Shown piece after piece: positions 1-2,529 of a DNA stretch of 24,923 bases. The DNA is from a virus. Made by a program: the position numbers and the translations under genes. The stretch lies in UHGV virus genome UHGV-0143632. One strand, 5' to 3'. Position 1 is the first letter of the stretch. Every line of letters begins with the position of its first letter. Below the pieces are notes generated by a model. The model had not been told where the DNA came from and did no database searches. It was given only the letters and a program-made list of their open reading frames with translations.

Positions 1-1133
1 CCTGCGGGACCTGCCGGACCTGTTGCGCCGGGTTCACCTTTATCCCCTTTCGGGCCGGTTTGCCCTGCCGGACCCTGTGGTCCGGGTGGTCCGGCCTCTC
101 CACGTGGGCCGGTGTCACCTTTCGGCCCCGGCTCACCTCTCGGACCAGCATCCCCCTTTGGTCCCTGAGGCCCCCCCGGGTCTCCTTTTTCGCCTCTGGC
201 CCCGGTTTCACCACGCGGCCCCATTGCTCCCTGTGGCCCGGTCGCACCACGTGGGCCAGATGGCCCTGTTGCGCCAGCTGGCCCCTGCACTCCCTGAGGT
301 CCCCGTTCTCCTGTATCACCTTTCTGGCCTGGTATGCCCTGAGGTCCGCGCTCTCCCTGCTCACCTTTCTCCCCACGCGGACCCGCCGGACCTGTTTCAC
401 CACGAGGACCAGCATCACCTTTCGGCCCTGTATCGCCTTTAGGTCCTCGTGCATTCTCAGCCATACGTCTGGCTTCTTCAGCACTAACTGTAGCAGCCTC
501 AGCACGTTTAAGAACGTCTCCGGCGGCCTCCTGAGCCACTCTGGCGGTTTCAGCATGTCGTCTGGCCTCTTTAGCGTCAGCTGCCGCTGCCTTTTCAGAC
601 TCACCTGCCCGGGTCGCCGCCTCTGCAGCCTCACTGGCTTTTTGTGCAGACTCCGTCGCTTTGCTGGTCGCAGCCTTCGCGCTTTCTGATGCAGTCTTCG
701 CACTGGCAGCAGCGCTTTCCTTCGACTGTGAAGCCTGATTATTTTTCACCGCCGTGTCTTCGTTCAGACGACGAATCGTGGCAAGGTCATCCGCCACATT
801 GTTCTGTATCTGCCGGAAATCTGTTAGCAGTTCTCCGGGTATGCTCACCTCAACAAGACTGCGGCGTAACAGCATATTGAGCGTCACCGTACTTTCAGTC
901 CCCTCAATACGCACACGTCCGTAGACAGCAGTCTTCCCTTTCACCGTCACAGAAACCGCATACTCCCCCGGCTCCAGCGTCATTCCGTAATACCCGCCGT
1001 CACGAGTCACTGCTGACGCACTGGTGCCGCTGAGCGCATCCGGTGAAACTGTCAGCGCCGTCAGGGTAATATTTGCGCCTGATATCGCCTCACCATCAGG
1101 AGATTTCAGCGTCCCCGAAACAACAACACTCAC
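1..1133 (-). CDS. Phage tail fibre protein, N-terminal part (partial, continues beyond window start), with Ala/Ser/Glu-rich segment and long collagen-like Gly-X-Y repeat tract
   Basis: Minus-strand frame open from the GTG at 1133 (SD GGAGGTG upstream, overlapping the stop of the upstream gene) to position 1. Translation begins [29 protein letters not shown], then an [15 protein letters not shown]-type segment, then [31 protein letters not shown]... The + strand ORFs 23..442 and 60..689 are wrong-frame readings of this repeat. Architecture resembles lambda-family side tail fibres. Confidence 0.75.
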
Positions 1134-1780
1134 ATTTCACCTCCGTTAAACACCTTCTTGCGGGCCGACAATGTACTGTCAGCCCCCTGTTTAATCCCGA
1201 GCTGCTCAACAAAACTCTGATAATGTTGTGCTGCCAGTCCTGACTCTGCACCACCGGCAGCATCCTTACTGAATGCGCGGAACAACATCCAGTCAACCAG
1301 CGGGTTAACATAAGCCTCTTCCAGCGGTACAGGCGTGTCATCATCCTGCGTCAGAACATACACCGCCTCCGGAATGCGGCTGACCACAGCATCAACACTC
1401 ACAGCCTCCTCCGGTGCCGGAAACAGCCAGAACACGCGCGGGGCAAGGTCACTGCTGATAAAGCATTCCGGTTTCCCCCTCAGCATGTGCCAGTCGGGAT
1501 ACTGTGCATCAAGCACCTCACGGGATTGCGGTTTTATAGCACTGCCATCGCTGAGGCATATCACGTCAAGAAGCTGTATTGCGCCATCAGGCAAAGTCTG
1601 ACGTGCACCAGGAACACAATTCAGCGTCTCCAGACTTGCGCCTGCATCCGGCCTTGCCAGAATCACCGCCCGCACAGCATCATTGTAATAATCACACAGC
1701 TCAGCCAGAGGCCAGCGCACCATCATCGGGTCAACCAGTTGCGTGTTCACTCGTCCGATGATTTCAGTAATCGTCGTCAT
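1130..1780 (-). CDS. Phage tail/baseplate-associated protein (gene immediately upstream of the tail fibre; position analogous to P2 gpI / e14 YmfQ), function unverified
   Basis: 216-aa ORF; its stop overlaps the tail fibre start (ATGTGAGTG), and its start overlaps the stop of the upstream ORF (ATGA). Family assignment is by position only. Confidence 0.5.
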
Positions 1781-2208
1781 CAGTAAAACCTTTGTCTGCG
1801 GACAGGATTGCGGTATGAGGAGTACGGACTTGTCGCCAGTGTGTCGCGATATGCCCGACGGATACCCTCAGAAAACAGCACAGAGAAATACTGTGCGCGC
1901 GACGGGTCTGACCATGAAACCCCGGTCTGCATGAACAACCGTTCAAGCGCCCCTGCTGCCACCTCTTCAGGCCATGCCCGCAGTTCATCCTGCACCTGAC
2001 GGCTCCCTGCTTTCGGAGCAACGGCATAAAGCACACTCACCTCTCCGGGCGAACAGGCAAAATGCATTACCCGCCCCGGGCGGATTTCCACATCATGACC
2101 GGCAAAAAGCTCACGCCCGTCAGCGAGGATATGCCCGTTGATATTTTTTCCATCTGATACATATCCCCGCCCCGACAGACCTGTGCTACCGGAAATAAAA
2201 AAGGCCAT
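1780..2208 (-). pseudogene. Possible C-terminal remnant of a baseplate J-like gene (142-aa ORF)
   Basis: Translationally coupled (ATGA) to the downstream 216-aa gene, but its only upstream start codon (2208..2206) lies inside the stem of the terminator hairpin at 2203..2227 and no RBS is evident. Confidence 0.3.
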
Positions 2209-2227
2209 CAGTGTTTTACTGATGGCC
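2194..2227 (-). terminator. Rho-independent terminator (minus strand)
   Basis: Perfect 9-bp stem GGCCATCAG / CTGATGGCC with 7-nt loop; on the minus strand it is followed by TTTTTTATTT; sits just downstream of the ORF ending at 2239. Confidence 0.6.
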
Positions 2228-2238
2228 CTGCCCCGCCG

Positions 2239-2529
2239 TTACAGCATTGTGCCCGGTTCGGGTTGTGTGTCTGTCATATCCGTCACCGGTGACTCCGGCT
2301 GAATATCACCATTTTCCGTGGTGACATCTTCCGCCTGTGGTTCCGGAAGCAGTTCCGGGGATGGTTCCGGCTGTGCACCAAGCAATTCATCCAGAATTGA
2401 ATCCACTTCTGCATCAAGACGCGCCTCAAGGTTCTGCCGAAGTTGCTGTTTCAGTGCGCTCCGGACTTCTTCAGAGCGCAGGACTTCCTTCACTGCCTCA
2501 GCAGTGACCAGCGATTTTATTTCTGACAT
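2239..2529 (-). CDS. Hypothetical acidic protein (about 96 aa, MSEIKSLVTAEAV...)
   Basis: Start chosen at the internal ATG at 2529 so as not to overlap the upstream ORF in another frame; weak RBS (GAGAAA); followed by the terminator at 2194..2227. Confidence 0.4.
   Translation of the reverse strand: MSEIKSLVTAEAVKEVLRSEEVRSALKQQLRQNLEARLDAEVDSILDELLGAQPEPSPELLPEPQAEDVTTENGDIQPESPVTDMTDTQPEPGTML

Follow-up and report, generated by a model that had tools for sequence, protein, structure and literature searches.

The late operons of the Shiga toxin phages 933W (NC_000924) and phi24B (HM208303), members of the genus Traversvirus in the subfamily Sepvirinae, follow one plan, in which the antiterminator gene Q is followed by genes for an esterase, a DUF826 protein, S, R, Rz, the small (terS) and large (terL) terminase subunits, the portal, the major capsid protein, a neck adaptor, a tail adaptor, and a lateral fibre. 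In phi24B, two dodecameric adaptor rings, gp64 of the neck and gp62 of the tail, lie under the portal, and the 645-amino-acid (aa) lateral fibre gp61 docks on gp62 (bioRxiv 10.64898/2026.04.10.717836). The same preprint relates the phi24B adaptors to the neck and tail adaptors of the Ralstonia podophage GP4, with match statistics like those obtained in the present study. The 24,923-nucleotide stretch analysed here, from the UHGV virus genome UHGV-0143632 and referred to below as the window, has this late-operon architecture and is the integrase-to-fibre part of an stx-less lambdoid Escherichia coli prophage of the 933W/phi24B type (Sepvirinae) located next to ynfG. There is little doubt that it carries one internal deletion of about 10.2 kb, made by illegitimate recombination between sites that share only the dinucleotide TA.

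The deletion was located by comparing the window with its intact relatives. When window 1-7000 was searched by megablast against 5,426 complete E. coli genomes, the hits formed two abutting sets, 2126-7000 and 1-2131, and no single place in these genomes covered the whole query. Four relatives were retrieved, the prophages of E. coli G6/7, JNEC-KY177, and NCTC9112 and the phage PhiR5_2. Both blocks occur in all four in the same order and orientation, with the left block ending at 2131 and the right block starting at 2126, and collinearity breaks at the same base in every one of them. The collinear blocks, window 1-2131 and 2126-24923, are separated in the relatives by 10,027 to 10,223 bp (10,222 bp in NCTC9112). 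An earlier interpretation, based on the letters of the window and its open reading frames (ORFs) and called here the sequence-only reading, had proposed that the late region was deleted; this is borne out by the intact relatives, which hold the two flanks 10.0 to 10.2 kb apart with the late genes between them. It had placed the truncation near 2210-2240, whereas the actual junction at 2130/2131 lies about 80 to 110 nucleotides (nt) further left, and the terminator and 2132-2240 belong to the Q-esterase block. Only the TA at 2130-2131 is common to both parents (AGGATA on the left and AGGCTA on the right), and there are no inserted bases. Repeats, insertion sequence remnants, and longer microhomologies were sought at the breakpoints, and none above chance was found within 60 nt of either. 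This pattern is the signature expected of an illegitimate, essentially homology-free recombination that would have removed about 10.2 kb in a single event.

The same junction was found in other data. Only an exact protein look-up recovered the junction; it placed the 142-aa junction-spanning protein on contigs from four datasets, namely, ENA ERZ976448 (NODE_26, 70,436 bp, 100% identical to window 1-12208, ending at window base 1 and probably the contig from which the window was taken), ENA ERZ27297300 (k119_84284), NCBI GCA_002541605.1 (NMDN01000157.1), and Logan SRR3988055 (a junction contig). The protein collection counts the exact 142-aa sequence on three contigs, the longest of 318 kb, and five contigs were read. 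The four datasets agree exactly over 75 nt at the junction, and their contigs are named in differing styles (NODE_ and k119_). The deletion is real and not an assembly error, because the same junction occurs in four independent assemblies and only 2 bp are shared between its sides. The explanation that a chimeric contig merely skips 10 kb of an intact prophage is very improbable. It would fit a window whose left edge falls together with the end of a contig in a repeat, the small size of three of the junction contigs (2.1 to 2.5 kb), and the lack of the junction in complete E. coli genomes. However, it would have to produce the identical 75 nt in four independent datasets with differing contig-name styles, and a 2-bp overlap with no nearby repeat would, judging from the behaviour of de Bruijn assemblers, give a graph assembler nothing to mis-join. 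The carrier lineage is rare. The junction was absent from phage records with both 501-nt and 7-kb megablast queries, and exact scans with 28- to 40-nt junction sequences found none in viral, metagenome, and species-representative genome contigs, the genome-contig collection scanned holding one genome per species.

The deletion begins at codon 12 of the gene for a class II holin and extends through codon 71 of the gene for the 187-aa neck adaptor. From the gene content of the relatives, the genes missing on the lysis side are the holin gene from codon 12 onward and those for the lysozyme, two small ORFs, and Rz; on the packaging side, those for the small and large terminase subunits and a 714-aa portal; and on the head side, those for a 335-aa protein in the scaffold position, a major capsid protein of the N4-gp56 family, and head proteins of 130 aa and 153 aa, and, last, codons 1 to 71 of the neck adaptor gene. 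Twelve late proteins of NCTC9112 (holin, lysozyme, the two small ORFs, Rz, and terS through the 153-aa head protein) had no tblastn match in the window, and relatives with 99% identity to it on either flank have the capsid and portal genes where they are expected. Lysis, packaging, portal, and capsid genes are indeed absent between the Q-like gene and the fibre gene (from 1133), as had been noticed from the sequence, and the additional remark that no tail tube gene is present is uninformative, since this phage type is short-tailed and such a gene was never expected. Where the holin gene is cut, its 11th codon uses the shared TA, and 20 out-of-frame residues follow up to a stop, giving a 31-aa peptide. 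RefSeq annotates a "class II holin family protein" at the corresponding place in G6/7, JNEC-KY177, and NCTC9112; a class II holin of about 71 aa with two transmembrane segments is not present in the window.

On the other side of the junction, the neck adaptor gene is reduced to a fragment that keeps 62% of the protein. Residues 72 to 187 of the 187-aa NCTC9112 protein align to window 2130-1783 with 99.1% identity by tblastn, and the remnant is 81% identical to residues 108 to 223 of vb_24B_34 of phi24B. The window ORF covers positions 91 to 202 of the 203-position PHROG 437 profile, compared with 1 to 202 for the intact NCTC9112 protein, and is therefore short of a full-length member of this group (about 187 to 223 aa). 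The 142-aa ORF in which the remnant is embedded consists of 26 codons without homologues and the 116 codons of the remnant. Its first 26 codons are a wrong-frame read through the 3' arm of the terminator, the U-tract, and the 5' region of the holin gene, in a frame that differs from that of the holin. No Shine-Dalgarno sequence lies upstream of its ATG at 2208, where the minus strand reads CAGTAAAACACTGATG. The ORF is thus a junction artefact and, as suspected from the position of its start codon, not a complete gene, with residues 1 to 71 of the parent missing. The proposal that it is the C terminus of a baseplate J-like protein does not hold, because it matches the neck adaptors of PHROG 437 and no Pfam baseplate family; neither the 142-aa ORF nor the 187-aa protein has a Pfam match at E ≤ 0.01. 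The 187-aa protein has a weak match (E = 0.019) to gp81 of GP4, a 12-copy chain (PDB 8jov_G). The intact neck adaptor gene is annotated as 129 aa in many E. coli records, as 223 aa in phi24B and 933W, and as 187 aa by RefSeq PGAP, so its start codon is called inconsistently across databases.

The 216-aa gene to the left of the remnant is intact and is that of the tail adaptor, which in the virion makes up the lower of the two dodecameric rings under the portal and has the lateral fibres docked on it. The protein matches SU10_adaptor with an E value of 8.5e-32 (111.6 bits, cut-off 27) over residues 2 to 203 and profile positions 1 to 190 of 194, and it matches the GP4 adaptor, present in 12 chains, in PDB 8jov_2 with an E value of 8.5e-26. 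It shares 89% identity with vb_24B_36 of phi24B and 99.1% with its NCTC9112 homologue. PHROG assigns the 142- and 187-aa proteins to group 437 and the 216-aa protein to group 399, in the category "head and packaging." In the phi24B genome, vb_24B_34, vb_24B_36, and the 645-aa tsps gene occupy the corresponding positions. Judging from the order of the genes, from the 645 aa given for the fibre, and from a neck adaptor residue, Ser190, that the preprint mentions, gp64 probably corresponds to vb_24B_34 and gp62 to vb_24B_36. The third gene encodes a lateral fibre with an N-terminal phage_tail_N/CarboxypepD_reg beta-sandwich, a coiled coil, and collagen Gly-X-Y repeats (Pfam Collagen, E = 2.6e-24; CarboxypepD_reg, E = 5e-09; phage_tail_N, E = 4.5e-4, below the cut-off). 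Its residues 1 to 374 are 69% identical to phi24B gp61 (645 aa), and the gene is cut by the end of the window, base 1 of which is also a contig end. Of a podovirus structural module (N4-gp56-type capsid, portal, two adaptor rings, and a lateral fibre with collagen repeats), the window has the lateral fibre, the complete tail adaptor, and 62% of the neck adaptor, 69 to 89% identical to their phi24B counterparts, with capsid and portal absent. Both the 216-aa and the 187-aa proteins match 12-copy chains of the GP4 portal-adaptor-nozzle complex (PDB 8jov), and the two-ring architecture is common to GP4 and phi24B, although the sequence relation between the window and GP4 is distant. With 62% of the first-ring protein and no portal, a GP4-like complex could not form from the genes of the window.

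The three left-hand genes had been taken as part of one structural operon truncated at its 5' side, and this part of the sequence-only reading agrees with the comparison. The tight coupling on which it was based is also present, but in somewhat different form. The first junction between genes is TGATG, with a one-base overlap at 1780, and not ATGA, while the ATG-TGA described for the second exists, but relatives are annotated with a fibre start at the GTG (1133) that shares bases with the TGA of the adaptor gene (GTGA). The operon had further been likened to the J-I-fibre order of P2, Mu, and e14 and the prophage described as mosaic, that is, as a lambdoid Q-esterase block joined to the remnant of a different phage. 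The close coupling of three genes ending in a fibre gene agrees with such an origin, as does the weak phage_tail_N match at the fibre N terminus, a domain of lambdoid side fibres, but an origin of this kind can be given almost no weight in view of the protein matches and of the relatives. The 216-aa protein matches only SU10_adaptor (PF24175) in Pfam and has GP4 podophage chains (PDB 8jov_2) as its PDB relatives, the truncated protein belongs to PHROG 437 and is 81% identical to the phi24B neck adaptor, and no Pfam baseplate match exists for the 142- or 187-aa proteins; therefore, the J-I-fibre assignment fails. In addition, both flanks lie within one prophage in NCTC9112, G6/7, JNEC-KY177, and PhiR5_2. 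The NCTC9112 prophage at ynfG (NZ_LR134079.1, 2,506,675-2,541,352), which is 99.3% identical to window 1-2131, 99.2% to 2126-7000, and 99.8% to 7000-24923, is the best or tied-best match for both flanks, with 10,222 bp between them. A mosaic is unnecessary because one ancestor that underwent a simple internal deletion accounts for both flanks.

The single-deletion reading is also consistent with the remainder of the prophage. The NCTC9112 prophage and the nearly identical PhiR5_2 share 99.2 to 99.8% DNA identity with the window over its full length, left and right of the junction, and have the same order of integrase, cI/cro, replication genes, nin, Q, esterase, DUF1378, DUF826, terminator, adaptor, and fibre, but they keep the 10.2 kb from the holin to the N terminus of the neck adaptor that the window lacks. 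PhiR5_2 (PV340546.1), a 61.5-kb phage genome record with E. coli K-12 MG1655 as its listed host, is a viable, plaque-forming phage. Apart from the lost genes and the exceptions given below, tblastn found the NCTC9112 prophage proteins at full length and with 98 to 100% identity in the window, including the integrase, Exo/Bet/Gam, RecE, Kil, cI, Cro, CII, the O-like and DnaC-like replication proteins, a HigB/HigA-type pair, the antirepressor, Nin proteins, RusA, and Q. The exceptions are DUF826, which is 94% identical over a longer RefSeq annotation, and a hypothetical ORF of 72 aa that NCTC9112 has between the CII and O-like genes (around window 14413-14612, minus strand), which in the window is altered or interrupted by an indel, with a length difference of 16 nt. 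The indel in the 72-aa ORF is the only other coding difference seen relative to NCTC9112. The deletion is thus the one evident lesion and is probably recent, because the immunity, replication, recombination, and integration genes are still 98 to 100% identical to those of an intact relative.

The consequences for induction can be predicted from the identity of the genes lost and kept. Late transcription modified by Q and starting downstream of the Q gene would still read the esterase, DUF1378, and DUF826 genes and the native terminator, and it would then enter the 31-aa holin stub, the neck adaptor fragment, which lacks a start codon and should be untranslatable, the intact tail adaptor gene, and the lateral fibre gene. 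With the holin, endolysin, spanin, terminase, portal, and capsid gone, lysis, DNA packaging, and capsid assembly would not occur, and the element would be locked in the chromosome and inherited vertically. The view that the prophage is defective, already suggested from the sequence, is supported, since the lysis, packaging, portal, and capsid genes are deleted.

Several points weigh against this interpretation or limit its reach. All contigs with the junction, like the window itself, break off within the collagen repeats encoded by the fibre gene, so that the left end of the prophage and the remaining tail genes are beyond view. The junction is absent from the 5,426 complete E. coli genomes by megablast, also with a 501-nt query spanning it. 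The four datasets could be isolates of one clone, in which case recurrence of the junction attests a real junction but not repeated origin or selection. The loss of lysis and particle formation is deduced from sequence only, and the carrier lineage may contain a co-resident helper prophage.

A different interpretation accepts the deletion but holds that it was selected, with the element kept as a domesticated cassette of immunity genes, toxin-antitoxin genes, Q-driven esterase, and tail proteins, or as a donor of adaptors and fibres to co-resident 933W-like phages. The intactness of the remaining genes, 98 to 100% identical to those of an intact relative, and the sighting of the junction in four datasets can be read in this way, and the breaks of the short contigs fall exactly at sequence that other lambdoid prophages would have in common, a hint that such prophages are co-resident. 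This interpretation is nevertheless improbable, because a recent neutral deletion predicts the near-identity equally well, the allele is rare (the exact protein on three contigs and no occurrence in the 5,426 complete genomes), and the datasets may not be independent lineages. It is likewise unlikely that the locked-in state is selected because SOS induction would lead to replication and to Q-dependent production of esterase, tail adaptor, and fibres without lysis, or because the tail module would enter the particles of co-resident 933W-like, possibly Shiga toxin (Stx), phages. If the tail module did enter such particles, the host range of those phages would be altered.

Internal deletion is an ordinary route of prophage decay, and the element in the window is an ordinary defective prophage that has been precisely mapped. 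Loss of morphogenesis or lysis genes by internal deletion, with regulatory and cargo genes kept, is also seen in other defective lambdoid prophages of E. coli, such as Rac, DLP12, and Qin, which are cryptic in K-12, and the defective Sp elements of O157 Sakai. In contrast to the heavily eroded cryptic prophages of K-12, the genome in the window is intact but for one lesion, which can be mapped exactly and seems to be recent. The prophage should be scored as defective although its regulatory half looks perfect. For annotation, the 142-aa ORF becomes a pseudogene fragment of the neck adaptor gene and the 216-aa gene a tail adaptor gene, not one for a baseplate protein. The junction shows, cleanly and to the base, how illegitimate recombination with hardly any microhomology inactivates a prophage, and it could mark the lineage of the few carrier strains; beyond annotation, it has little importance. 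The positions of the features around the junction and of other genes of the late and regulatory regions are listed in Table 1.

Table 1. Positions of the deletion junction, the genes on either side of it, and other mapped features of the window.
Feature	Position	Strand	Basis
Lateral tail-fibre gene, first 377 codons, GTG start at 1133	3-1133	-	Pfam; PHROG 366, E = 2e-128
Tail adaptor gene, intact, 216 aa	1130-1780	-	Pfam PF24175 SU10_adaptor
Neck adaptor remnant, codons 72-187 of 187 and stop	1780-2130	-	tblastn; PHROG 437
142-aa ORF, ATG at 2208 within the 3' arm of the terminator stem	1780-2208	-	
Deletion junction	2130/2131	.	Base-by-base comparison with G6/7 and JNEC-KY177
Class II holin stub, ATG at 2162 and first 11 codons (MYQMEKISTGI)	2132-2162	-	Translation compared with the 71-aa NCTC9112 holin
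Predicted intrinsic terminator hairpin between DUF826 and the holin gene	2191-2229 (stem 2229-2201, T-tract to 2191)	-	Terminator scan
DUF826 small gene	2239-2529	-	Pfam DUF826, E = 1.9e-28
DUF1378 small gene	2555-2749	-	Pfam DUF1378, E = 7.1e-36
NanS-p-type SASA carbohydrate esterase gene, 657/667 aa	2890-4863/4893	-	Pfam DUF1737 (N-terminal), SASA, DUF6645
Q-like late antiterminator gene	6314-6928/6940	-	PHROG 753 "anti-termination protein Q-like," E = 3.5e-68
ORF6N/P22_AR_C antirepressor gene	8689-9360		

The Q-like gene is the upstream end of the late operon. Its product is 100% identical to a 204-aa protein of NCTC9112 by tblastn and had no match in a Pfam search. From this gene toward the junction, the order is that of the Sepvirinae late operon (Q, NanS-p-type esterase, DUF1378/DUF826, and holin), with the holin reduced to the 11-codon stub. 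DUF1378 and DUF826 are the usual pair of small genes separating the esterase from the holin in 933W-like phages, and their order matches that of 933W and phi24B. Compared with these two phages, the window lacks stx, the tRNA genes between Q and the esterase gene, and the block from lysis to capsid, and it has a Q-like protein of another type (PHROG 753) and another integration site. It is considered an stx-less relative because no tRNA genes occur anywhere in the window and no stx-like ORF was found among the ORFs of 4894-6313.

The terminator between DUF826 and the holin gene has a 12-bp stem, a 5-nt loop, and a T6AT3 tail, with a folding energy of -21.9 kcal/mol (z = -4.2), and the G+C-rich hairpin is followed directly by the U-tract on the transcribed strand, as predicted for a Rho-independent terminator. 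An identical hairpin occurs at the same place in all four intact relatives; it belongs to this phage type and has nothing to do with the deletion. The terminator was considered as a cause or by-product of the deletion and was ruled out because it is unchanged in the intact relatives.

The esterase is 100% identical to a 657-aa protein of NCTC9112 and 58% identical to vb_24B_21 of phi24B. Its phi24B homologue gp84 is a capsid decoration protein, whose N-terminal DUF1737 domain is the capsid-binding part (bioRxiv 10.64898/2026.04.10.717836). As the capsid gene is gone from the window, the DUF1737 domain has no capsid to decorate, while the esterase is still 100% identical to that of the intact relative. 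In the untranslated stretch between Q and the esterase gene lie two diverged copies of the small RNA STnc100 (Rfam RF02076; 130 and 139 bits) at 5095-5304 and 5580-5773 on the minus strand, each ending in a terminator-like hairpin, at the place where Stx phages have tRNA genes and stx. NCTC9112 has one copy, compared with two in the window, and G6/7 and PhiR5_2 align through both.

Further features lie in the nin region and around the antirepressor gene. A HigB/RelE-type toxin and a helix-turn-helix (HTH) antitoxin are encoded within the nin region as an intact pair at 9777-10302 on the plus strand, 100% identical to that of NCTC9112; the pair could help to retain a defective prophage. Upstream of the antirepressor gene, at 9414-9612 on the minus strand, the Rfam C4 antisense RNA, its a1/b1 targets, and isrK all score above their gathering thresholds, which points to a putative c4-ant (IsrK-like) antirepressor control of the P1/P7 type inside a lambdoid prophage. 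The right end of the window (24923) is the boundary between prophage and host and lies 2 bp before the truncated ynfG found beside the NCTC9112 prophage, and the window ends resemble those of a trimmed provirus call.

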